From the NCBI GenBank assembly GCA_965116495.1, contig OZ220696.1, forward strand, positions 2,624,001-2,688,000: a DNA stretch of 64,000 nucleotides, in the 5' to 3' direction. Positions 12,901 through 47,990 of this stretch are shown one piece after another. This DNA comes from Gammaproteobacteria bacterium (GTDB taxonomy: Bacteria; Pseudomonadota; Gammaproteobacteria; Eutrophobiales; Eutrophobiaceae). The notes beneath the pieces were generated by a model. That model was not told the DNA's origin. It worked only from the letters and a program-made list of their open reading frames with translations, and did not search any database. The translations under genes were made by a program, and so were the position numbers. Position 1 is the first letter of the stretch. The number at the start of each line of letters is the position of its first letter.

Positions 12901-12925
12901 GATTTAATTTCCTCTTGATTTAGCT

Positions 12926-12953
12926 AAAAACACAGGCGCTTCCAGGAAGCGCC
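12926..12953 (-). terminator. possible internal terminator/hairpin before tube gene
   Basis: GGCGCTTCC-t-GGAAGCGCC followed by TGTGTTTTT on minus strand. Confidence 0.45.
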
Positions 12954-13077
12954 CATCCAACAACAGTGTGATGTTAAATTAATCGGTTTCTGACAGGCAG
13001 TGACGAACTGCCTGAACCAATTCATGATCAGTGATGAATACAGCTTACGCAGAATTATTTTCCCCGGGCTTTGCTAT

Positions 13078-14697: not shown

Positions 14698-15438
14698 TTA
14701 TTATTCCCTCATTAAAAAATATTCGCCCAGGCTCCTGGCAATATGCATTGTTAAAATCCTGGTTTCGAAATTCGCCTGGAAAAGAAACTGGGAGTACTAC
14801 GACTCCTGCAGTTTATGGGTAAAGGTGAAGACCACAAATTCCGCCGGACGTACCGCTGCCGCACCGACTGTAACGTTCAGGCGGCCCTCCAGAATATCCT
14901 GCTCATCCATCGTCTCACCCAAGCCAACCCGGACAAAGAAGGCCTCATCCGCGGTAGCGCCCGCCAAGCCCCCATCCTGCCAGAGCCTGGTCAGGTAACT
15001 TTCAACCTGGGTCCGTAATTTGGTCCAGGTGATGGCGTTATTCGGTTCAAACACGGCATAGGAAGTAGCCCGCCTGATGTCGCTCTCCATCTGGATAAAT
15101 AAGCGCCTGACCGGAATATAGCGCCATTCGTTGCTGTTGCCGGCCAGGGTGCGGGCGCCCCACACCAGTGTGCCTTTGCCATTGAAGGCGCGAATCGCAT
15201 TGATCGATTTGCCGGCCGTTGCATCGACGTTTAAACCTGCTTGTTCACTGTTACTGATTTTGACTGAAGGTTCAGTAACGGCATTCAAACTGACATTAGC
15301 GGGCGCCTTCCAGGAGCCGATGGAATGGTCAACAGCAGCTATCACACCTGCAATTGCTGCACTGGGTGGCATTGTTACTGTCTGTCGGGATAAAAGTGAC
15401 GAAATATTATGGTAATGATCCGATGTTTGAGCACCTAA

Positions 15439-17525
15439 CCCAAGTTTACCAATCTAAAAAATAAATCGTTATATGTCAATGGGTTAGATTGACATAATTC
15501 CGCTTATGGCACTACATTCGCGCCATGTTGCGGACGCTGTACTCAGACGATCTCTTTCTGCGTACCGCCGGGTGGTCCACGAATTCCCAAGGCGTCCAGG
15601 ATGGCCTGTTGCGGCGGTTCCGGACGGGTGGCCTTGCGCACGTGCACGGTACGTCCGTCTTTGCGCCGGACCGTGGCGGTCACCCGCTGACGGGCGCCGA
15701 GGATGCGCCGCAGCGTGGTCCAACTTGCGTTGCGGCAGGATTCATCGCCGTGCGCGGCCAGACGACGGCGGACCACCTGGACCAGTTGGTAGGCGATGAC
15801 GGTGATGAACAAGTGGCCCTCGGCGCGCCGGGGACTCTGGTGATAGATGGGGCGCAATCCCAGCTCGGATTTCAAGGCGCGGAACACTGCTTCGATGTCG
15901 GTGAGCAGGGTGTAGGTCTGCCACAGCCGCGCCTCATCCCAGTCGGTGAGGTTGCTGCGCAGGCAATAGATGCCGGGGTGGGTGAGCATCGAGCCGGTGA
16001 CCGGCTGGCGCTGCCAGCGTACGGCCACGGCCCGTTGGCCCTTGGCATCGGTGTCGACCTCGATGGTATAGTGCTGGCCGATGCCGTGGCTGCGGGCTTT
16101 CAAGCGTCCGATACGTTCCCGGACGTAGCCTGGCTGCTTGCGCGTACGCGGCCGGGACAGGCCCTCGTGCAGCGCGCTGAGGCCCTGCTCAAAGCGCGCC
16201 ATGAAGCGTTCGGCGATGGCGCGCTCTTTCTCGGCCCGCGCCGCCGAGTAACAGTACAGGCGCACCTCACCGGCCTTGGCATCGGCCACCTGCTCCAGTT
16301 GGACCGTCTCGCCCCCACGGGTACGATGGGCCAGGGCGGCGTCCACGTCGAACCGGCGCTGTTGTTCCCGGCTCACCACGATGTAACGGTAGTCGTTATC
16401 CTTGAGCCAGGTGACCTGCGCCTCGGTGGCGATGCCCCGGTCGAGAATGACCAAGGCCCCCGGCGGGGTCTTGAGCGCCTCCAGCATCCCGGCCAGGGTG
16501 GTCTCCTCGCGCACGTTGCCGGCAAACACCCGTGAACGGCGCACGAAGCCGCTCGCATCGAGCACCAGCCCCAGGGTGAGCAGCTTGCAGTCGCTGCGTT
16601 TCTCTTTCGAATGGCCGCGCTGCGCCAGCGGCTGCCCGTGGGCCTCGCCCTCGTAGTAGGTGTTGGTCAGGTCATACAGGGTGACCGTCGGCGCCAGGTC
16701 AAACAAGTCCATGGCCTGCGCGAACAGGTGTGTCTCAATGACCGCACGGTGTTTGAGCAGCGCATCGGAAGCCCGGTACAACTGCATGGCGCCCATGCGT
16801 TCGAAGTTCACGTCCAGCAACTCGCCCAGGGCACTGCGCTCGCATAACCAGGCATGGGTGGCCCGCTCCGAGGCCGGGCACGCCAGCCGGCCCACGATGG
16901 AGCCGATGGTGGCGGCGCGCAGGGATGCATTGACGCCCTGTGCCGCGAGTAACTCGTCCAGCCCCACCTGTGCCAGGGCCCACAACCCCACCTGCTCCAC
17001 GCCCACGCTGCGCGGGCGGGTCAAGGCCAGCGAGTCCAGATCGACTGCCATCCACGCCGGCGCCGTTCCCGTCTCGTCCGGTCGAGACCGGGCCAGCAGT
17101 TGGGCGCTAATCTGTTGTGCCGCACTCTCCACGCCGGCGGGCAGGCTCGCCAGCAGCGACGTCTGGCCCTGGCGCAACGCCTCAATACGTTGGCACAGGG
17201 TCGGCCAGTGTTGTTTGTCGATAGCAAACTCGCTGCCGAGGTTCAGCAGGGTGCGTTGGCGCACCTTGGTGCCCGCGCGCTCACTGTGCACCAGGCGGTG
17301 GGAGTAATAGGCCTGGCCGTCGGTACGGCGGGTGAGGGTACGGCGGATGAACATAGGGGGAGAGGATACCGCTCTACCACACCGATGTCAATATAAATAT
17401 TCATATTATGGCACTACAATGGCCAGACAACCCGTCACTCACCAAAAATCAATGCGTTACGATGACGAACCCGGCAGAAAATAGCAACATCCAACTAAAT
17501 GCCAGTGAATCTTGGTAAACTTGGG
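15439..17525 (-). mobile_element. IS1634-family insertion sequence
   Basis: Perfect 14-bp terminal IRs CCCAAGTTTACCAA (15439-15452) / TTGGTAAACTTGGG (17512-17525); CTAA duplicated at 15435-15438 and 17526-17529; visibly GC-richer than flanks. Confidence 0.9.
15543..17354 (-). CDS. IS1634-family DDE transposase
   Basis: YDLTNTYYEG, GHSKEKRSD, ILDRGI, IEAVFRALKSELGLRPIYH. Confidence 0.9.
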   Translation of the reverse strand: MFIRRTLTRRTDGQAYYSHRLVHSERAGTKVRQRTLLNLGSEFAIDKQHWPTLCQRIEALRQGQTSLLASLPAGVESAAQQISAQLLARSRPDETGTAPAWMAVDLDSLALTRPRSVGVEQVGLWALAQVGLDELLAAQGVNASLRAATIGSIVGRLACPASERATHAWLCERSALGELLDVNFERMGAMQLYRASDALLKHRAVIETHLFAQAMDLFDLAPTVTLYDLTNTYYEGEAHGQPLAQRGHSKEKRSDCKLLTLGLVLDASGFVRRSRVFAGNVREETTLAGMLEALKTPPGALVILDRGIATEAQVTWLKDNDYRYIVVSREQQRRFDVDAALAHRTRGGETVQLEQVADAKAGEVRLYCYSAARAEKERAIAERFMARFEQGLSALHEGLSRPRTRKQPGYVRERIGRLKARSHGIGQHYTIEVDTDAKGQRAVAVRWQRQPVTGSMLTHPGIYCLRSNLTDWDEARLWQTYTLLTDIEAVFRALKSELGLRPIYHQSPRRAEGHLFITVIAYQLVQVVRRRLAAHGDESCRNASWTTLRRILGARQRVTATVRRKDGRTVHVRKATRPEPPQQAILDALGIRGPPGGTQKEIV

Positions 17526-18370
17526 CTAAGTTACCGCTTAGCCCAGCGCCGGAAACTGTTACTGAACTGTCCGTATAACGATAGCGCAGTGTTGTCTTCA
17601 AGCAGGGATAATAGGCCGCCCCGTAATTCAAATTGTTAATTCCGACACTATTACTTCTGAAATTCCCGTCATCATTTTTTGGAATCTTACTTCCTGCTGG
17701 TTTTTGATAAACGTCCATCAGCGCAAACCGATCCTGTAATGCAGCACAATGCGCCAAGGCGTGATCGCAAACCAATTTATAATCACCGTATGCATCTTCG
17801 AGAATTTCCGCAGTCGTTTCACTACCCTTAAGGGATGCTGGCTCAACTACCAGCCCCACGGCATCGACAGGGACGATCAGAGTTGGTCCATCTTCAGCCT
17901 TTAGTTTATCGATACCAGCGTTAATGGCTGCTGCTGTTTTGTCACTTGCCGTGGTTGTTCCGCCGTTGCTGCCTACGGATACGATGTAACAATCACCGCC
18001 GCCATTAGCGCAGAAAAGTTGCAGGCTGTGATACATTTGATACTTCAGAGCAGGAGAGTCAACCGTATAAGTAGGAGGGGTACTCTGCGCATTCACGCTA
18101 ACATTAAATTCTGTTTTCTCCGCGAAGCCAAACAGGCTTTCATACTCGCGCATGGAACGGATCCGGGTCGGCACATTGGCCAAATCATTTCCATCAGCGT
18201 CTACAGCTATATCGGTATAGCCGATAAAGGCGGGCACGGCAGTATCGGCTGTGACGACTGATGGGGGCAAAACGGATTTTTCCTGAATATATACGTCAGG
18301 TGTTTTAAAAGTCATTGTAGAGTCCTCATGTTGAACAAAATAAAGAAATGTGTAGTCGTATGTACGTTTA

Positions 18371-19762
18371 CTACGCCTCCTGCAATTTATGAGTAAAGGT
18401 GAAGACCACAAATTCTGCCGGACGCACCGCTGCCGCACCGACTGTAACGTTCAGGCGGCCCTCCAGAATATCCTGCTCATCCATCGTCTCACCCAAGCCT
18501 ACCCGGACAAAGAAAGCTTCAGCCGGGCTCGCTCCCGACAAGCCCCCATCCTGCCAGAGCTTGGTCAGGTAACTTTCCACCTGGGTCCGTAATTTGGTCC
18601 AGGTAATGGCATTGTTCGGTTCAAACACGGCATAGGAAGTAGCTCGTTTGATGTCGCTCTCCATCTGGATAAACAACCGCCTGACCGGAATATAACGCCA
18701 TTCGTTACTGTTGCCGGCAAGGGTGCGGGCGCCCCATACCAATGTGCCTTTGCCATTGAAGGCGCGAATCGCATTGATCGATTTACCGGATGTTGCATCG
18801 ACATTCAGGGTGGCCTGTACATCGTTGTCCAGTTTAACGACAGGAGCAGTTACAGCGTTCAGACTAAGGTTGGCCGGCGCCTTCCAAACTCCGCGCTCAT
18901 TGTCTGTCGTAACTATCGCGCCTGCTAGCGCTGCGCTGGGAGGAAGCGTTACTCTTTGTCTGTCAAGTAAATCTTTGACTGCGCGATAACGAGCTGGCTT
19001 GTAATTTTCATTTTTACTGTCGTCGTTATTTGTCGGAGTATCGAGAACACTCAGGTCAATATCTGCAGGTTTTGGTCCTTTACCGTTATAAATGGTAACT
19101 TTTACTGCATTTGTGCCGGAATCAACATAATGATAAGGAAAGTTGGTGTCGAGATTAGGATAATACGCGGCGCCGTAATTTAAGTAATTTGAACCAATCG
19201 CCGTTCTGAACGTTTCGGGATCACTACCATCCATGTCAATGATGGCGAAACGGTCCTGCGTCTTGCTACATTGAGTGAGCATGTCCTGAACATAGGCATG
19301 ATAAGATCCTGTCTTGGCTGCATCTCCGGGCAACAACAGCGTAGGCTCATCTTCTTTTTCCAATAACTTCAAGCCGGCTTTTAATTTTATGTATGCCGGA
19401 ATTTTAGTTTGGTATGAACCAACGGAAACTATATAACAAGCGCCCCCGCCATTCGCAAAATAAAGTTGCATGGAATGATACATAAGATGGGTCAATCCTG
19501 GATTCTGCTTAATACTTATAACTTCTGTATCTGGATTTATCTCTACTTTAAATTTGGTTTCTACTGCCTGACCAAACTTGTTTTCATACTCGCGCATTGA
19601 AGTGATACGAGTCGGCACATTAGTCAGGCTCTTGCCATTACTGTCTTTGGCTTTCTCGGTATAACCTACAAAGGCAGGTATTGCCGAAGCGCCCGTCACG
19701 ACTGAAGGGGGAAGAGTGGATTTCTCTACCGTATAAACATGCGGAGTTTTATAGTCAACCAT
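18371..19762 (-). CDS. contractile tail sheath protein 1 (first structural gene)
   Basis: KTPHVY, PAFVGYT, FANGGG, GVWKAPAN, WGARTL, VRPAEF; GAGGA RBS. Confidence 0.95.
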   Translation of the reverse strand: MVDYKTPHVYTVEKSTLPPSVVTGASAIPAFVGYTEKAKDSNGKSLTNVPTRITSMREYENKFGQAVETKFKVEINPDTEVISIKQNPGLTHLMYHSMQLYFANGGGACYIVSVGSYQTKIPAYIKLKAGLKLLEKEDEPTLLLPGDAAKTGSYHAYVQDMLTQCSKTQDRFAIIDMDGSDPETFRTAIGSNYLNYGAAYYPNLDTNFPYHYVDSGTNAVKVTIYNGKGPKPADIDLSVLDTPTNNDDSKNENYKPARYRAVKDLLDRQRVTLPPSAALAGAIVTTDNERGVWKAPANLSLNAVTAPVVKLDNDVQATLNVDATSGKSINAIRAFNGKGTLVWGARTLAGNSNEWRYIPVRRLFIQMESDIKRATSYAVFEPNNAITWTKLRTQVESYLTKLWQDGGLSGASPAEAFFVRVGLGETMDEQDILEGRLNVTVGAAAVRPAEFVVFTFTHKLQEA

Positions 19763-19796
19763 TGTTAAATCCTCATAAATTTCAAATTAAAGGCAT

Positions 19797-19828
19797 AAAA
19801 AAACCCAGGCCGGGGTCCCGGCCTGGGT
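19797..19828 (-). terminator. strong intrinsic terminator immediately upstream of sheath 1
   Basis: ACCCAGGCCGGG/CCCGGCCTGGGT perfect IR followed by T7 on minus strand, 35 bp before the ATG. Confidence 0.88.
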
Positions 19829-19868
19829 CTGTCTTGGTCATGTGTCTTTGTGAAGACACACTCATGTC

Positions 19869-19924
19869 AGTATAGTGGTAATTTATAGTTTTCTATTTGA
19901 ACAGCGTCAAGAACTAATTTACCA
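19869..19924 (-). promoter_or_regulatory. promoter-like element P2 with upstream box and -10-like pause hexamer
   Basis: TGGTAAATT-agttc-TTGACG-N17-TATAAA-ttaccac-TATACT. Confidence 0.7.
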
Positions 19925-20258
19925 GGCATACAAGATTACTGTATTCCTTCACTTTCTACTGAAATTGTTGAATGCTCAATCCGGACGCATTATTACCAGC
20001 ATTAACGTAAGTTGTATCCTTTCGTTCAAACAATGCCCATATATTTTCTACCAGAACAAAAAGGACATATCCGTATCAAATAACAAATTTGACGGGGCAG
20101 GATATGCCCAACCAGATCGACTGTGATCCAATGCCCCTGGTCGGCGGAGCTATCCGGAAGGAGGTATGTGCAGGAGAAAGAACTCCGCCGTAAAACTGAC
20201 TCTACGCCATTGAAACAAAATCAGAACTGGTCTGGATCATGCAGATATTCATCAAACA

Positions 20259-20516
20259 TCACCTAATACGGCATGCTGTCCAGGCCTGATCCCATACTTG
20301 CAGTGCTTCCCGGCACTGCGCGTGAACCAGTACCGCATCCTGCCAGGCACGTAACAGGTCGCGCAGTGTCTCCCCATCATCAGGCATTGCCGGACATTCC
20401 ATTGCAGGTTTCCGGGGTGGACACACTTCCACCTTGGTTTCAACTACCGTACGAGGCAACCCTCCACACCCGGCCAGCAGCAGTAACATCACGGTAACCG
20501 ACAATCGATAGGGCAT
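20259..20516 (-). CDS. putative o-spanin (Rz1-like lipoprotein)
   Basis: Lipobox LLAGC, Pro/Cys-rich periplasmic part; overlaps the 3' end of the upstream gene. Confidence 0.75.
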   Translation of the reverse strand: MPYRLSVTVMLLLLAGCGGLPRTVVETKVEVCPPRKPAMECPAMPDDGETLRDLLRAWQDAVLVHAQCREALQVWDQAWTACRIR

Positions 20517-20836
20517 GTTACCCCCTCCCCCGCTGCCTCAATCTCATCAATGGTACGCTGCTCCTGCTCGGCCAGGTCTCGCACCTTTGCCACCCGCTGC
20601 TCGGCCTGTGTCTTCGCTTTCTCAAGAGCAGCTATTGCAATTCTTTGTCGTTTATTAGCCTTGAGGTTTTCTTCGTTAATGCGCATTAATTGCCGCATCT
20701 CTGCCTCCGCCCTCCCAGCGTATTTAATTGTGCGCACTATGTATGCAAGAGCGCCCGTGCAAACCATTGCCGTGATAGCGAGGGTCAGCAAGCCGGTGGC
20801 AGTGCGTCTTGCAAATGGGGCAGCGAAAAACATCAT
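20489..20836 (-). CDS. putative i-spanin (Rz-like)
   Basis: Single N-terminal TM helix, long coiled coil, C-terminal Cys; paired with the lipoprotein. Confidence 0.72.
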   Translation of the reverse strand: MMFFAAPFARRTATGLLTLAITAMVCTGALAYIVRTIKYAGRAEAEMRQLMRINEENLKANKRQRIAIAALEKAKTQAEQRVAKVRDLAEQEQRTIDEIEAAGEGVTCPIDCRLP

Positions 20837-21102
20837 ACTTCAGTGTGTCGCTTCCTGCTGATCTCGTCAATCGTGCCTCTGAGGTACGCCAGGTCCTCTC
20901 TCAGCTCTGAACGGCCGGCGGCGGTCTTGGCTTTTTCGCTGTCCATCCTCATATCCAATTCCTTCCAGGATTTATCCATCCTGGCGTCTATTCGGCTATC
21001 CATATCAATAATGTCCTGTTCTGTGTTCTCGACTTTTTCGACCAGTTCGGTCAATCGCCACATCCATACGAGTGTGTTGATTATTCGGCCGAAAGATTTC
21101 AT
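20833..21102 (-). CDS. hypothetical coiled-coil protein in lysis cassette
   Basis: 89 aa; ATGA overlaps with both neighbours. Confidence 0.6.
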   Translation of the reverse strand: MKSFGRIINTLVWMWRLTELVEKVENTEQDIIDMDSRIDARMDKSWKELDMRMDSEKAKTAAGRSELREDLAYLRGTIDEISRKRHTEV

Positions 21103-21431
21103 TTTTTGGCCTCCTCAAAGTACTTGACGTATTGGTTTACCCTGCGACCTTTCCAAAAATAAAAAACCCCGGTATCAGACCTGGTCAACCAGACCACATC
21201 CGGTAACGGGGCTTTTTTACGACAGATTTCTACCGGCGGTTTTCCCCATTTTCCCAGGTACTGGCCGCAGACAGCGTAACTTGCTGCCTGCGCTGGTGCG
21301 CAACCGACAAATGCGATCAGGAGTGGCACGGCGATGATCTTGTACCCTGCCAACAAGGGCATCTCACCGTCATAATTAACCACAAATAAATAAAAGAGAA
21401 GACATGTTGCAACAATTATTGCCAATGTCAC
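21099..21431 (-). CDS. hypothetical membrane/exported protein in lysis cassette
   Basis: Likely GTG start overlapping the endolysin stop (GTGA); two hydrophobic segments and a lipobox-like FVGC. Confidence 0.5.
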   Translation of the reverse strand: MTLAIIVATCLLFYLFVVNYDGEMPLLAGYKIIAVPLLIAFVGCAPAQAASYAVCGQYLGKWGKPPVEICRKKAPLPDVVWLTRSDTGVFYFWKGRRVNQYVKYFEEAKK

Positions 21432-21976
21432 TGCATTTTCCGGCGTACCATGGCGATTCGCCATACATACTGTATAGTCTCCCGACTGTAGTGACCGGTG
21501 ACCAGATACAGGTAAGGCGCTATACCGTCCCAACAGCGTTCTCCGCCGGACAGTTCCTGGGCTTTCAGGATATTGCCGTTCCCGGCATTGTAACCGGCCT
21601 GCCCCATTGTCCGTCGGCACTCTTGTGTCCTGTCAAATATCCAGAAATCCATCGACTGGGCCATGTAGCGAGCGCCCATGATGATGTTGTATCTGGCCTC
21701 GAAGACATTGCCATCCACCTGGCTCTGACGCTGCAGATCTGCCAGGGTTGTCGGCATGATCTGCATAACGCCTTGAGCGCCGACTGGTGAAACCGCAGTG
21801 GTCACCAGCGAGCTCTCGGCTATTCCCTGCGCTTTCAACCAGCACCAGTCCTGTTGTTCTGGCGGCCAGTAGTACATGACAGCAACTCGAAAGTGTTTAT
21901 CAAATGCCTGGGTATAACCGGGCGCGTGGCATTGAGCCGCGAACAGAGAAAGCATTAATACAGCGGCTGCGCTCAT
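21428..21976 (-). CDS. SLT-domain lytic transglycosylase (endolysin) with N-terminal hydrophobic signal
   Basis: AES catalytic Glu, AVSPVGAQGVMQIMPTT, YNAG, ETIQYV. Confidence 0.9.
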   Translation of the reverse strand: MSAAAVLMLSLFAAQCHAPGYTQAFDKHFRVAVMYYWPPEQQDWCWLKAQGIAESSLVTTAVSPVGAQGVMQIMPTTLADLQRQSQVDGNVFEARYNIIMGARYMAQSMDFWIFDRTQECRRTMGQAGYNAGNGNILKAQELSGGERCWDGIAPYLYLVTGHYSRETIQYVWRIAMVRRKMQ

Positions 21977-22425
21977 CCGAGAGGCGTTCCCATATTTGCT
22001 ATCAGGTAGAATATAGCTATGGCGACGCCGGCCGTGCAGATGGCGAATGCGATGGCCAGTTCGCCGTCACCTTGTTTTGTTGTTTTGCCTTCTCTCCATG
22101 CGTCTGCCATATCGTCAAGCTCATCAAGAAATGGAAATACCAGCTTGCGCACGGATTCGATACGTATGAGGACATATAACACTATCAAGCTGACAGCGAG
22201 ACCGGATAATCCCCATACCAACTGATTCAAAAGGTGGTTGACCTGCAAAATCCAGGTTTTGAAAAACCCGGTCGGATCGTAATATATGCCGGCGATAAGC
22301 GCTGCAATCAGCGCGAGTGACAGCAATGTGTATTTGCTCAGCAACCACTTGATGCTGTTAACTACAAATCGAAACACGGCTTCAAACCCTTTGCCGCAGG
22401 CAAGATATATGTTCTCTTCTTTCAT
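21973..22425 (-). CDS. putative holin (about 3 TM helices)
   Basis: Three hydrophobic segments, RKLVFPFLD loop; coupled by ATGA to the endolysin. Confidence 0.6.
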   Translation of the reverse strand: MKEENIYLACGKGFEAVFRFVVNSIKWLLSKYTLLSLALIAALIAGIYYDPTGFFKTWILQVNHLLNQLVWGLSGLAVSLIVLYVLIRIESVRKLVFPFLDELDDMADAWREGKTTKQGDGELAIAFAICTAGVAIAIFYLIANMGTPLG

Positions 22426-22583
22426 CTCAGGTCAACTCCACTGCCATCAATATTGAATGTACTTATTATTAAGGAAGCTCTGATCAAGTCCGTCCGGGAC
22501 TTGTGTTTTCTTTAGCTCCAGGCCATACATCACGGCCTTGGGATTGGTGATAATCTCCGACTGCCCGTCGAAGTCCGCACAGG

Positions 22584-23039
22584 CTATCGGCCCATCAGGT
22601 GCTTCTGTATAAGGAGTAAAGTGCTGTTAATCTGCTTGAGTTCGCCCGCTTGTGAGGCCGAGGATTGAACTACCTCATTGATACGATTGTTAATGCTGGC
22701 AATCACACCAGACAGATTCAATTCTTTCATTTCCGCTTCCAATACCGCCAGTTTCTTGGCATTATCAAGCGCTGCAGAGCGATCCGGCATGTCTGACTTT
22801 TTAAGATAGTCGCGTTCCAGGATAAGTGGTAGCTCGCTTAATTTTGACAGACTATCCAACTCAGCAAGCATCCTCTCCAGTCTCTGGCCTTGCTCGGATA
22901 CACGAACCTCAGTCTCCTCGATCACCTTCTGGTTTGCCGTAGACCTGCTGGTAATGTATGTATATATAGCTGATGCAGAGGCAATCACTACCGAGGAAAT
23001 AAATAAGTACAGATCAATCTTCTCGACGTACTCGACCAT
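22584..23039 (-). CDS. membrane-anchored coiled-coil phage protein (DUF2730-like)
   Basis: N-terminal TM, coiled coil, C-terminal GELKQINSTLLLIQKHL recalling proteins in Mu-like lysis regions. Confidence 0.5.
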   Translation of the reverse strand: MVEYVEKIDLYLFISSVVIASASAIYTYITSRSTANQKVIEETEVRVSEQGQRLERMLAELDSLSKLSELPLILERDYLKKSDMPDRSAALDNAKKLAVLEAEMKELNLSGVIASINNRINEVVQSSASQAGELKQINSTLLLIQKHLMGR

Positions 23040-23163
23040 AATTGATAAATAGCTCAGAGACTCGTTGTACTGACACCGACCAAACCTTACTTGTTATCTC
23101 ATCCGCTGCATTATCGTGAGTCTCAGCGTTGGCAAAGCAAATCATCGGAAATAATCGCTTTGT

Positions 23164-23541
23164 TTATGACCATTTCCCTAACAACCAGTACTTTGCCATT
23201 CTCAAGTATTCATGAAATGTGACACGGCTCATATTCAACTCGTCTGCCTTTTGCATCACACTGCCGGACTGCAAATAATATTTCATAACCACTTCTTTTA
23301 ATTTCACCGGCATCTCACAAATTGCTTGTTCGGTCTTTTCCGCTTCTTTATCGTCTGGTAACCTCGTCTGAAATCCCTGGTAGACATATGCCCCTTCCCG
23401 CCGCAATTTGTTCTCCCTGGTTTCAGTGGGGAACCCCAGTCCAAAATTGCGTCTGACCCTGGCCCAGCGAGCCCAATGGCTTAAACTTATTTCTATGAAG
23501 GCCGTGGGATCTACAGCTTTCGTTGACTGACGTTGTTTCAT
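23164..23541 (-). CDS. phage antitermination protein Q-like
   Basis: 125 aa; LSHWARW..GLGFP N-terminus and C-terminal HTH-like YYLQSGSVMQKADELNMSRVTFHEYLRMAKYWLLG; upstream of lysis genes. Confidence 0.75.
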   Translation of the reverse strand: MKQRQSTKAVDPTAFIEISLSHWARWARVRRNFGLGFPTETRENKLRREGAYVYQGFQTRLPDDKEAEKTEQAICEMPVKLKEVVMKYYLQSGSVMQKADELNMSRVTFHEYLRMAKYWLLGKWS

Positions 23542-23542
23542 G

Positions 23543-23788
23543 TCAACACATCAGCCTTAAGTAACGTATTCCATCTAACTGAGCCTTCAGACTATTGAGT
23601 GTCTGTTTTGCGCGTTTTTGCTCCACTTCATCTAAATAGGGAAAATAAGCTTTAATCAACTCAATATCAAAACACCTCAGCTCATATATATCATTAATTG
23701 ATATATTCCTACTCGGGACTGATAAAGCCTCGCCCCGGAATAGTATTTTCATCTGTTCATTAAGAATGTGATTTACTTTTTTGTGCAT
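23543..23788 (-). CDS. hypothetical protein (81 aa) coupled to Q
   Basis: GGGAGA RBS; stop 1 bp before the Q start. Confidence 0.6.
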   Translation of the reverse strand: MHKKVNHILNEQMKILFRGEALSVPSRNISINDIYELRCFDIELIKAYFPYLDEVEQKRAKQTLNSLKAQLDGIRYLRLMC

Positions 23789-23844
23789 ATTTCATTCTCC
23801 CATCTTATTATTTATATAACTTTTATTAATTAAATGATTGCGCC

Positions 23845-23872
23845 AAAAAAAACCCGCAAATTCAGGTGCGGG
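23845..23872 (-). terminator. intrinsic terminator upstream of orf81-Q
   Basis: CCCGCA-N8-TGCGGG followed by T8 on minus strand. Confidence 0.75.
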
Positions 23873-23937
23873 ATTCCTACTAAATGAGGAAAAATTGTAA
23901 ATTTAATATTCTAAATAATTCGTTATCATAAATATTT

Positions 23938-23998
23938 ATTCTATCTCAACGGTAATTTATAAACTGTTGTTCAAATTACTGCAACTATGAATTTACCA
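23938..23998 (-). promoter_or_regulatory. promoter-like element P1
   Basis: TGGTAAATT-catag-TTGCAG-N17-TATAAA-ttaccgt-TGAGATAGAAT. Confidence 0.68.
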
Positions 23999-24067
23999 AG
24001 GCCTGGCCGGCAGGGGATATTTCTTTATTCAAACATGTACCATCGTCACGAGAAAGACAATTATTTC

Positions 24068-24123
24068 ATCGTATAGACATTTTATAGGTTATCGTCTGAA
24101 CAACTGCAAGTAAAAATTTACCA
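24068..24123 (-). promoter_or_regulatory. promoter-like element P0
   Basis: TGGTAAATT-tttac-TTGCAG-N17-TATAAA-atgtcta-TACGAT. Confidence 0.68.
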
Positions 24124-24255
24124 GTAGATCTCAGGTCATGGGTTCTTGGCACGATAAGGAAAGTCGAAAAAGGCACTCATTGGAATACCGCCTGGCAAAA
24201 CACATACCGAGAAATTGGTGGGAAGAAACCTGAATGCGCAAAGAAAGTCTGCCCA

Positions 24256-24555
24256 ATGAAAGCGGCTGAAACGTTGTATGAACTTGGTCGGATCCGTGGT
24301 GGAAACAAATCTTTCAAAAATTTACCATTAAGGGAAGTAGTAGATAACTATTCGAAAAATGGCGCATATGCTGTTTTGGCTATTGAGTGCTTATCTCAAG
24401 ACCCGGGCATTTCCTTGACTACCCTATGGTCTCAAATTCAAGACAATATTATGAACGAATTGGGGGTAGAACCTGCCAGAAGTAATCAGCGAGGGCCAAC
24501 GGTAGCCTATAAACTCTGGCATCTCGGACAGATTAGCGGTAGCGAATCTGAATAA
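24256..24555 (+). CDS. hypothetical protein (possibly DUF6979-like; frame open from ~24100 without a clear start)
   Basis: Upstream in-frame KKVCP and internal KNGAYAVLAIE resemble that family. Confidence 0.35.
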   Translation: MKAAETLYELGRIRGGNKSFKNLPLREVVDNYSKNGAYAVLAIECLSQDPGISLTTLWSQIQDNIMNELGVEPARSNQRGPTVAYKLWHLGQISGSESE

Positions 24556-46347: not shown

Positions 46348-46935
46348 ATGGCCGACAATTTACAAAAATCTTCGGTAGAGCAAAGCTTCGCAGAGAACGA
46401 AAGTGCGCTGAAACGCTTTCTTGAGCGTTACTTCTACAGTACACATGATATTGAAGATATATTGCAAGACGCCTTTCTACAAACGTGGATCATCGAAAAA
46501 AAGCAAAAAATTCAAGCGCCTAAATCCTATCTGTTCAAAGTAGCCAGAAATATTGCCTTGAAGGAGTTGAAAAAAAAGTCCAGGCAAATTACTACCTATA
46601 TAGAGGAATTTAACCCCGAGGAACTCGTATGTAATGAAACTTTCATAGAAAATGAGGTTGATTTAAATGAAAGACTGATCCTTTTTGAGAAAGCACTCGC
46701 GACATTACCACCTCGTTGCAGAAATGTCTTTGTGCTACGGAAGGTATTTGGCCTCTCTCAAAAAGAAATTGCACGGCGCATGGATATCTCTGTAAGCACG
46801 GTAGAAAAGCATATTATCAACGGCATACAACGCTGTAACGCTTATATGAATACGCACGGCACTGACGATCTGTTTGGGTCGGCAAAGCGTAACAACCCTG
46901 AAAGTACGATGGACAGTGTGAAAGAAGCGAAATGA
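46348..46935 (+). CDS. ECF sigma factor (FecI-like)
   Basis: DIEDILQDAF, YLFKVARN, LPPRCRNVF, SQKEIA, TVEKHI. Confidence 0.92.
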   Translation: MADNLQKSSVEQSFAENESALKRFLERYFYSTHDIEDILQDAFLQTWIIEKKQKIQAPKSYLFKVARNIALKELKKKSRQITTYIEEFNPEELVCNETFIENEVDLNERLILFEKALATLPPRCRNVFVLRKVFGLSQKEIARRMDISVSTVEKHIINGIQRCNAYMNTHGTDDLFGSAKRNNPESTMDSVKEAK

Positions 46936-47990
46936 AAAATCTCGTTGAATTTCCGGACCACAAAACCATTGAAGCGGAGGCTGCCGCCTGGATTGCTCGA
47001 CTGGACCGTGGCGGGTTGTCTGAGGAAGAATGCGTTGCGGTACGCGATTGGATTGGTCGCAGCCCGGAGCACTATGCGACAATAAGCCGGTTTGCCGGTA
47101 TCTGGGACGATTTGGACGGCCTTGCTGAAATCCTGGACGAGATGAAACCGCATCCATCAATCCGGGAGGTCCACCGTGGACCACAACCCATAATTCGGTT
47201 TACAACGGCAAGAGTGGGGGTGGTTGCCTCGGTCATCATTGCAATCGTTATCGGCGTTCTTTTCAGCAACGGCGAGAATTTTCGGACGGTTACCACTCCT
47301 GCGTCATCATGGCACGCCGCTTACCTGACAGCTATAGGTGAGCGGCAAACTGTTACTCTTCGGGACGGTTCCCGGGTACTGTTGAATACGGATACAGTCA
47401 TCAATATCGATTTCGATGACCGACAGCGGAAGGTACGTCTGGTTAAAGGCGAAGCCCTGTTCGAAATCATCCATAACCAAACTCGTCCGTTCCTGGTCTA
47501 CGCGGGCATGAATGTTATTCGCGCGGTCGGCACGGCATTTGTCGTCAAACTGATAAAGGACGAAATCGAAGTGACCATACAGGAGGGACGGGTCGAACTC
47601 AAGTCAATTAAGGATGATACGCAAAACCGCGTGGGAAATGAATTGACCATCGCCTCTGCCGTGATCGATGCCGGTCAAACTGTGAAAGTCAATAAGGAAA
47701 TCCAGACCTTACAGGAAATTGAAACAGAAGAAATAGACCGGAAGCTGGCCTGGCGAAATGGATTAATCATTTTCAGTGGCGAACCGCTGGATCAGGTTAT
47801 TGAAGAAATAAGCCGCTATACTCCCGTCAAATTTGTCATTGCTGAACCTGACCTTAACATGCTTCGTATAGGCGGCCGCTTCAAAATCGGCGAAACCGAT
47901 GCCATGCTCGAAGTTCTGGATACAGGTTTTGGTGTCAACGTCAATCGGGTAAGCAATGACTTGATTTATCTAACTGCTGACTCCCAGTAG
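46932..47990 (+). CDS. FecR-family anti-sigma sensor
   Basis: EAAAWIARL, TM, LRDGSRVLLNTDT, AVGTAF, AWRNG. Confidence 0.92.
   Translation: MKNLVEFPDHKTIEAEAAAWIARLDRGGLSEEECVAVRDWIGRSPEHYATISRFAGIWDDLDGLAEILDEMKPHPSIREVHRGPQPIIRFTTARVGVVASVIIAIVIGVLFSNGENFRTVTTPASSWHAAYLTAIGERQTVTLRDGSRVLLNTDTVINIDFDDRQRKVRLVKGEALFEIIHNQTRPFLVYAGMNVIRAVGTAFVVKLIKDEIEVTIQEGRVELKSIKDDTQNRVGNELTIASAVIDAGQTVKVNKEIQTLQEIETEEIDRKLAWRNGLIIFSGEPLDQVIEEISRYTPVKFVIAEPDLNMLRIGGRFKIGETDAMLEVLDTGFGVNVNRVSNDLIYLTADSQ

Follow-up and report, generated by a model that had tools for sequence, protein, structure and literature searches.

A candidate Q-type antitermination leader in front of the eCIS sheath operon of an uncultured gammaproteobacterium

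The eCIS locus and the leader of its first sheath gene

The window analysed here, a stretch of 64,000 nucleotides, is part of the complete 4.34-Mb genome (G000) of an uncultured gammaproteobacterium. On its minus strand, a sheath gene heads a structural and cargo operon of about 37 kb that extends beyond the window start. This operon, read on one strand, is composed of sheath, tube, spike, baseplate, further sheath, ATPase-like and Pvc16-like genes, and of two cargo genes with an eCIS-core domain (PF13699), which are the two PF13699 genes of the cluster. The parts of an Afp/PVC-type eCIS could be assigned: sheath, two tubes, CIS tube initiator, VgrG, gp25, baseplate, AAA ATPase, Pvc16-like protein and eCIS-core cargo, of which the ATPase and the Pvc16-like ORFs were assigned by reading the sequence and the other core parts by Pfam matches. 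Upstream of the eCIS genes are a lysis-type cassette, a 125-aa Q-like gene and an 81-aa ORF, named orf81. The main features are:

12922-12957, approximate (-): internal terminator-like hairpin in the gap between sheath 3 and tube 1, -16.4 kcal/mol, T-rich tail
18371-19762 (-): first eCIS sheath gene, 463 aa (PF04984/PF17482), head of the operon
20259-23039 (-): lysis-type cassette (holin-like, SLT endolysin, Rz/Rz1-like), without a copy of the motif described below
23164-23541 (-): Q-like gene, 125 aa, predicted 21Q/AlpA fold (phrog_79, E 9e-6)
23543-23788 (-): orf81, 81 aa, conserved helical-hairpin protein, directly before the Q-like gene

The Q-like gene is followed by lysis-type, sheath, tube, spike, baseplate, ATPase and cargo genes, and preceded on its upstream side by toxin-antitoxin-like, ATPase and IS genes; no head, portal, terminase or replication genes lie alongside it. 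The locus is not a prophage late operon. The lysis-type cassette is found in G000 only: in three congeneric relatives (G014, G015 and G022) the equivalent place is taken by a single 193-aa ORF with no Pfam match, and a search with the G000 endolysin found no orthologue in these three genomes. The gap from the holin-like ORF to the gene after it (22470-22600, minus strand) contains three small hairpins (z -2.2). The second sheath gene of G000 is interrupted by a 603-aa DDE transposase gene (15543-17354, minus strand), which splits it into segments 17449-18315 and 14797-15420; sheath 2 is uninterrupted in all three relatives. Given this split gene, the G000 particle may be defective or may lack sheath 2. 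Operon-internal terminator-like hairpins occur after sheath 3 and also before the first cargo gene.

The region in front of the first sheath gene contains a presumed promoter, P2, and a leader with two hairpins:

19917-19924 (-): box I (TGGTAAAT), about -49 to -42, candidate site of an initiation regulator; GGTA invariant in 25/25 non-redundant motif sites
19905-19910 (-): -35-like hexamer TTGACG, its TTG nearly invariant across motif copies
19894-19903 (-): spacer element, family consensus TGTYYRRACA, about -28 to -19, candidate Q-binding element
19882-19887 (-): presumed -10 hexamer TATAAA, 17 bp from the -35 in all copies, with a non-consensus A as last base
19869-19874 (-): -10-like hexamer TATACT, predicted sigma-dependent pause element; in a rival role, the true -10
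19841-19860 (-): leader hairpin 1, 8-9 bp, a predicted fold; hairpins at a similar place in the relatives differ
19797-19830 (-): intrinsic terminator, 11-13-bp stem followed by T7
19797-19875 (-): predicted terminated leader RNA of about 79 nt, placed from the motif geometry

The features named in the original prediction are present base for base on the minus strand. With the predicted +1 placed at 19875, TATACT occupies +2 to +7 (19874-19869), 7 bp after TATAAA, so that a pause element is present in the sequence and pausing is predicted; the TACGAT proposed for the equivalent position of a further promoter copy, P0, is found at 24073-24068. In lambda pR', the -10-like pause element is located at +1 to +6. 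The 8-bp hairpin TGTGTCTT-N4-AAGACACA is located at 19841-19860 as described; its sequence is not conserved among orthologues, and we know of no counterpart of it in the Q mechanism. The GC stem before the sheath gene has 11 bp in the minimum-energy fold, whereas the centroid fold and the terminator scan both give 13 bp. The T7 tract spans 19803-19797, and 34 nt separate its last T from the sheath ATG at 19762. Between the terminator and this ATG there is no promoter-like pattern. The 87-nt leader folds at -37.2 kcal/mol with a z of -5.07 (0/200 shuffles were as good), and its 13-pair terminator is the top-listed of 23 terminator-like sites in the window segment 14000-24000. A constitutive leader RNA of about 80 nt, made when Q is absent, is plausible, at slightly below an even chance.

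A generic promoter scan did not report P2, because TATAAA has no final T. By inspection against the consensus sequences, a sigma54 promoter was ruled out by its spacing, and ECF and sigma28 promoters by consensus mismatch. Further upstream (20055-20125, minus strand), beyond a degenerate promoter copy, is an inverted repeat, ATATCC...TCAAAT...ATTTGA...GGATAT, that is kept in 4/4 genomes and is possibly a further regulator site. The host has lexA and recA. The SOS box CTG-N10-CAG is absent from the three control regions and from before lexA and recA; it may not be the box of this host, and SOS control of the locus may still apply. At 3154100-3154330 of the G000 chromosome no classical CTGT-N8-ACAG precedes lexA or recA, and an inverted repeat ACTGCTT..AAGCAGT lies before lexA; the G000 lineage may use another SOS box.

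A 60-bp motif, its terminators and its targets

P2 is one copy of a 60-bp motif, which is composed of a TGGTA box, TTG and TATAAA at a distance of 17 bp, a palindrome in the spacer between them, and a TAnnnT hexamer. A matrix trained on 15 sites from the three congeneric genomes only, with G000 left out, gave exactly four matches in the 4.34-Mb genome, all in the eCIS locus, with scores of 23.7 to 59.7; the best score in the reversed and complemented G000 sequence, used as control, was 1.3. This repetition, with four matches against a control maximum of 1.3, argues for the reality of the P2 promoter. The motif and its sub-blocks mark no other G000 gene above control scores. Two copies precede the sheath gene and two precede a terminator in front of the regulator operon, which consists of orf81 and the Q-like gene:

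24064-24123 (-): motif copy P0, upstream of the regulator operon, matrix match
23939-23998 (-): motif copy P1, upstream of the regulator operon, matrix match
23845-23872 (-): terminator between P0/P1 and the orf81-Q pair, from the terminator scan
19994-20053 (-): motif copy P2a, degenerate, 129 bp upstream of P2, score 34.3, conserved in 3/3 relatives

A pattern search allowing two mismatches found 12, 17 and 13 sites in G014, G015 and G022, respectively, and none in the controls of these genomes; in G000 it found four sites, one of them probably by chance, against one in its control. Iteration over the fetched loci yielded 52 distinct 60-mers, 25 of them non-redundant, with the consensus C-TGGTA(A)AT, N6, TTG, TGTYYRRACA in the spacer, TATAWA, N7, TAnnnT, G. 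The conserved spacer block, at -28 to -19, is palindromic and not a direct repeat, and it is a candidate Q-binding element. The spacing of TTGACG-17-TATAAA, from which the start site is predicted, is invariant. The presumed -10 ends with A in 50/52 copies and never with T, whereas T closes 146 of 310 intergenic TTG-17-TA sites of the host. The downstream hexamer keeps A2 and T6 in 47/52 copies; in the sheath promoter of the relatives the presumed -10 has decayed to CAATAA or CGATAA and TA(T/C)ACT is retained. Near-consensus TTGAC is found at 7/16 terminator-gated sites versus 1/36 terminator-less sites, and this association with terminators argues that TTG is a working -35. An RNA hairpin at +8 to +23, noticed post hoc across sites (z 3.3), was not among the top family-wise scores. 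In metagenome contigs (38 loci) and viral contigs (16 loci) the best matrix score was 15.8, mostly from AT-rich contigs, and was taken as chance.

A terminator follows within 330 nt of the motif at 16 of the 52 sites, all of which belong to the core locus, namely those before the regulator operon, the sheath gene and, in the relatives only, a 613-aa ORF. In each of seven strong leaders (7/7), the U-tract begins 72 nt after the predicted start (+72). Across these leaders 76 of 77 cells of the stem are paired, and three pairs are changed on both sides; 0/500 shuffles were as good in pairing and covariation, a significance that is inflated by the kinship of the leaders. The three congeneric genomes keep the leader terminator with compensatory changes and at the same distance from the motif, and before the structural genes it has an energy of -20 to -25 kcal/mol and a tract of T7 to T9. 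In the place of 23845-23872, the G022 and G015 leaders and the G014 sequence have a terminator of different sequence. The other 36 of the 52 distinct sites have no leader terminator; termination can therefore not be the whole of the control, and the notion of a lone pR' copy has to give way to that of a regulon element. In the relatives (L005:3557-7186), a motif-plus-terminator leader precedes the 613-aa ORF, which has no Pfam match; genes for an ECF sigma factor and a FecR-like protein come next, shortly before orf81-Q. No such 613-aa ORF was found in G000, where the ECF/FecR pair lies 22 kb off (window 46348-47990).

In G014, G015 and G022 the motif occurs at 12-17 sites per genome, most of which stand before scattered cargo-like genes and have no terminator. 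At 31 of the 36 sites without a terminator, the ORF that follows carries one of three peptide signatures, against 25 of 2000 random stretches; these signatures were defined post hoc and consist of a GNR motif shared with eCIS-core cargo, an HExxH core and an RPYxxFVE family. Moreover, 11 of the 15 PF13699 matches in G014, G015, G022 and a further genus genome, G001, have a motif on the same strand within 1.5 kb upstream, and the remaining four have one within 3-8.4 kb. The motif-marked ORFs would be injected cargo. The RPYxxFVE proteins, of 250-600 aa, lie behind motif copies in G014, G015 and G022 (L013, L027, L120, L121, L125, L126, L130, L139); two members scanned gave no Pfam match, and the family is a candidate for cargo without an eCIS-core domain. 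Four motif copies were also found in G016, G019 and G001, three genus genomes in which neither the Q-like gene nor the sheath was found. In G001 the copy stands before a fragment of an eCIS-core gene, and one of the G016 copies matches a cargo site elsewhere almost exactly; these copies may be remnants, with which both observations agree but which they do not prove.

The Q-like protein and its distant relatives

The Q-like gene is located 3.3 kb upstream of the leader. The protein itself gives no PF06530 match, and 41 of 125 aligned sequences of its family, which are the query, three orthologues and 121 of 150 homologues among the matches listed, match PF06530 at E ≤ 0.01. Its predicted model (pLDDT 78) can be described as an N-terminal helix, a flexible loop and a sigma-4-like helix-turn-helix. 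A Foldseek search with this model gave no match at E ≤ 0.001; Q21 was found at E 1.1 with a query TM-score of 0.53, the highest among the matches listed. Re-alignment of 300 chains with VIA placed Q21 first, with a Z of 9.4 and an rmsd of 5.0 over 97 residues in the range 9-125. Sigma-4 domains reached a Z of 8.3 over 59-68 residues, within about 1 Z unit of Q21, and among the top VIA rows residues 9-125 are covered only by Q21 chains. The protein likely belongs to the 21Q/AlpA family and is a putative antiterminator.

In the relatives the Q-like gene is kept at 77-78% identity. The Q-like gene, orf81 and the eCIS sheath are found in the same 4/23 genus genomes, a co-occurrence that counts as about one event because the four genomes are close kin. 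A search of the order for this Q subfamily found it in 4/126 genomes, the same four, and scans of metagenome contigs, viral contigs and phage records confirmed nothing. The 11 homologues of orf81 are all from close kin as well; orf81 had no Atlas match, a fold search gave generic helical-hairpin matches only, and its model shows no helix-turn-helix.

Distant Q-like homologues were found in 16/399 other genomes of the class, and many follow replication-type or DUF6475 genes. In G493 the homologue lies between a primase-like gene and the lysin and terminase of an intact prophage, the canonical position of Q. The surroundings were read widely in 12 genomes (19 of the 23 matches listed). In two of the 12 (G217 and G261) the Q-like gene is directly before eCIS sheath genes, and in one (G308) it is directly before an eCIS-core gene, which encodes a 1417-aa protein of eCIS-core plus Ulp1 protease. 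In G217, which belongs to another family, two TTG-17-TAGTAT promoters and a terminator precede the Q-like gene. These promoters have a common spacer and a -10-like TAAATT or CACAAT 5 nt after TAGTAT, in a sequence unlike the G000 motif; a count of this pattern would be circular because it was derived from the two sites, and the terminators are independent features. A complete unit of promoter, -10-like element and terminator was not seen before the sheath genes of G217 or G261. In the protein tree the eCIS-linked Q-like proteins of G217 and G261 are separate from the G000 group; because its deep forks are weak, we make no claim on the order of events.

In one G217 contig (L173:3379-5163, C85), a divergent pair of Q-like paralogues is flanked by ParA/ParB-like genes and the eCIS, and candidate paralogue pairs were seen on further contigs (P0003/P0180 and P0002/P0182). 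Six loci, L174 (G308:C61), L175, L177, L178, L182 and L183, are small elements that carry replication-type, DUF6475 and Q-like genes. Head and tail genes are absent from their vicinity, and effector-like or type IV secretion genes come after them; an integrase was seen in L174 and L175.

Proposed control of the operon and comparison with known systems

In the mechanism that we propose, transcription of the Afp/PVC-type eCIS operon would be halted by a promoter motif of sigma70 type together with a -10-like hexamer and a conserved terminator. RNA polymerase would start near 19875 and pause on TATACT. The Q21-like protein encoded at the locus would bind the spacer element and load onto the paused polymerase, which would then pass the leader terminator and the internal terminators over about 37 kb. 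Positive feedback is predicted because motif and terminator also precede orf81-Q, and single cells could then be either on or off. The weak -10 and the TGGTA box upstream of the -35 suggest that control is exerted at a second tier too, either initiation or escape from the pause, as in the Caulobacter gene transfer agent. We regard it as fairly probable that Q-type antitermination acts at the sheath leader and that the cassette works like 21Q/AlpA. The same motif is found before the sheath gene, the Q-like gene and, in the relatives, likely cargo genes, so syringe and payloads are likely switched on together by a borrowed phage antiterminator. The lambda-like control of the original prediction is partly supported, by a protein of predicted Q21 fold encoded upstream, a well-placed -10-like hexamer, a covarying terminator and the absence of an RfaH paralogue and of an ops site, but lambda does not give the complete picture. 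Activation of the promoter may be required, or the true -10 may be TAnnnT, because the presumed -10 ends in A, most sites have no terminator, box I is present and some motif copies occur in genomes where no Q-like gene was found.

If TAnnnT is the real -10 of a promoter without a -35, the upstream motif would mark where an activator binds, perhaps the Q-like protein by way of its sigma-4-like helix-turn-helix; the leader would measure about 66 nt and the terminator would be a second filter. This accords with the sigma70 signature A2/T6, which is found only in the downstream hexamer (47/52), often with G-rich bases after it, and with the decay of the first hexamer in the sheath promoter of the relatives, the dispensability of the terminator at most sites and the close structural match of sigma-4 domains to the Q-like protein. 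However, TTG and TATA keep a distance of exactly 17 bp in all copies and the quality of the -35 tracks the presence of a terminator, while the shifted frame contains no conserved -35 or pause element and an activator leaves passage of the strong terminator unexplained. The predicted 5' hairpins of several leaders begin at +5 or +6, upstream of the start that this reading requires, although the general hairpin at +8 to +23 is not family-wise significant. We consider this reading unlikely.

A separate DNA-binding regulator, either host-encoded or orf81, might instead act on box I or the spacer palindrome and control initiation across the regulon, with the Q-like protein dispensable or weakly acting and the terminator leaky. 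A palindromic spacer is typical of dimeric repressors and activators, while the 21Q site is a direct repeat, and motif copies occur in genomes where no Q-like gene was found. Against such a regulator, which we find quite improbable, are the failure of the motif and its sub-blocks to mark any other G000 gene above controls, the lack of a helix-turn-helix in orf81, the conservation of a terminator of -20 to -25 kcal/mol with T7-T9 before the structural genes, and the retention of the Q-like gene at 77-78% identity. The leader folds very stably into two hairpins, and regulatory RNAs can come from phage pR' leaders, according to the accessible part of PMC7547250; the leader could then be an independent small RNA gene or an RNA attenuator, with the structural genes expressed by upstream read-through or an RNA switch. 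This is very improbable, as Rfam gave no match in window 19500-24500, hairpin 1 differs among orthologues, the predicted leader structures include no alternative antiterminator fold and the conserved information sits in the promoter DNA. Among the readings weighed, Q-type control of the leader is the best, with a start site, a pause, Q binding and read-through that are all predicted from the sequence.

A wider reading would be that a phage Q was domesticated as a self-amplifying master switch of the eCIS and of a genome-wide cargo regulon, passing the terminators of the core operons and gating terminator-less cargo promoters by pause release; that the motif is an address tag for orphan payloads, including a family with neither Pfam match nor eCIS-core domain; and that Q-type control of eCIS recurs in other gammaproteobacterial families. 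We put this forward tentatively, as a proposal somewhat more apt to fail than to hold. If true, a Q-type switch with feedback would explain in concrete terms how few cells come to express the system, and would offer one gene by which a silent eCIS cluster could be induced. The motif also connects dispersed cargo genes with the syringe they belong to, a link that is usually difficult to make from sequence. Should Q gate promoters that have no terminator, anti-pausing activity would be a regulatory mechanism in its own right.

How most eCIS clusters get switched on is called unclear in the accessible text of PMC10598620. The regulators named in the available parts of the literature are RfaH/AnfA1, GerE and BTAD (PMC8213781; PMC12961389; 10.1101/549964), and the eCIS antitermination known from them is of the RfaH/AnfA1 type. 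Q-controlled eCIS was not found in the full-text literature searched, a coverage outside which most subscription journals and bioRxiv supplements fall, and the accessible text of PMC10598620, PMC4684702 and PMC13266070 has no passage with 'antitermin'. In the part of an eCIS census consulted (supplement file 4), PF06530 accounts for 0 and PF03589 for 1 of 22,287 domain hits (PMC8213781); such a census would miss the Q-like protein because it falls below PF06530.

The comparisons that follow draw on the available portions of the papers cited. RfaH/AnfA1-ops control of PVC and Afp concerns long eCIS operons that need processive antitermination, as here, and PVC operons are expressed in few cells (10.1101/549964; PMC8213781). 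In contrast to RfaH/AnfA1, the putative antiterminator here has a predicted phage Q fold and a leader terminator is present. No RfaH paralogue was found, with one PF02357 (NusG-family) gene in each of G000, G014, G015 and G022, and none of the four exact matches of ops, GGCGGTAG, falls in 19763-24300, so that the control regions have no ops site.

For its action Q depends on a binding element located between -35 and -10 and on a -10-like sequence that causes a pause; it then keeps terminator hairpins from forming (10.1101/651190; PMC6606751; PMC9371919). Like the lambdoid Q/pR' systems of the 21Q family (10.1101/651190; PMC6606751), the eCIS locus has a predicted Q-fold gene upstream of lysis and structural genes, and a presumed promoter whose spacer holds a conserved block, followed by a -10-like hexamer, the predicted pause element, among the first bases transcribed and by a terminator. 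Unlike them, it has no phage head or replication genes, the promoter directly after its Q gene has no motif, the Q gene itself is behind motif and terminator, and there are many distant targets in the relatives of G000. The spacer is palindromic whereas the 21Q site is a direct repeat, and there is an extra box upstream of the -35, a position for which no Q-binding element is described in the accessible parts of the literature examined. The position of the spacer block coincides with those of the AlpA-binding element, at -25 to -22 (PMC7969949), and of 21Q subsite 1, at -21 (PMC6606751). The -10-like element, 13 bp after the -10, is near that of PalpB, at -1 to +5 in the AlpA system (PMC7969949; PMC9371919).

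AlpA of Pseudomonas aeruginosa is a domesticated 21Q-fold antiterminator, as is proposed here, with an element between -35 and -10 and a leader terminator; it acts at more than one locus and controls lysis genes (PMC7969949; PMC9371919), and its system has CACGAT as -10-like sequence, compared with TACGAT at P0. However, it takes the loss of the AlpR repressor to turn alpA on, and no adjacent repressor gene was seen at the eCIS locus, whose predicted targets comprise an injection system and as many as 17 sites per genome, most of them lacking a terminator. GafYZ of the Caulobacter gene transfer agent differs in that GafZ is reported, in the available text, to have no sequence or structural similarity to Q or AlpA, and no GafY-like activator was identified at the eCIS locus, where orf81 is a candidate by position only. 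GafYZ activates about 18 dispersed promoters, including that of the regulator operon, and adds antitermination at the main cluster, and this two-tier logic for a phage-derived particle is the closest to that of the eCIS locus (PMC11150451).
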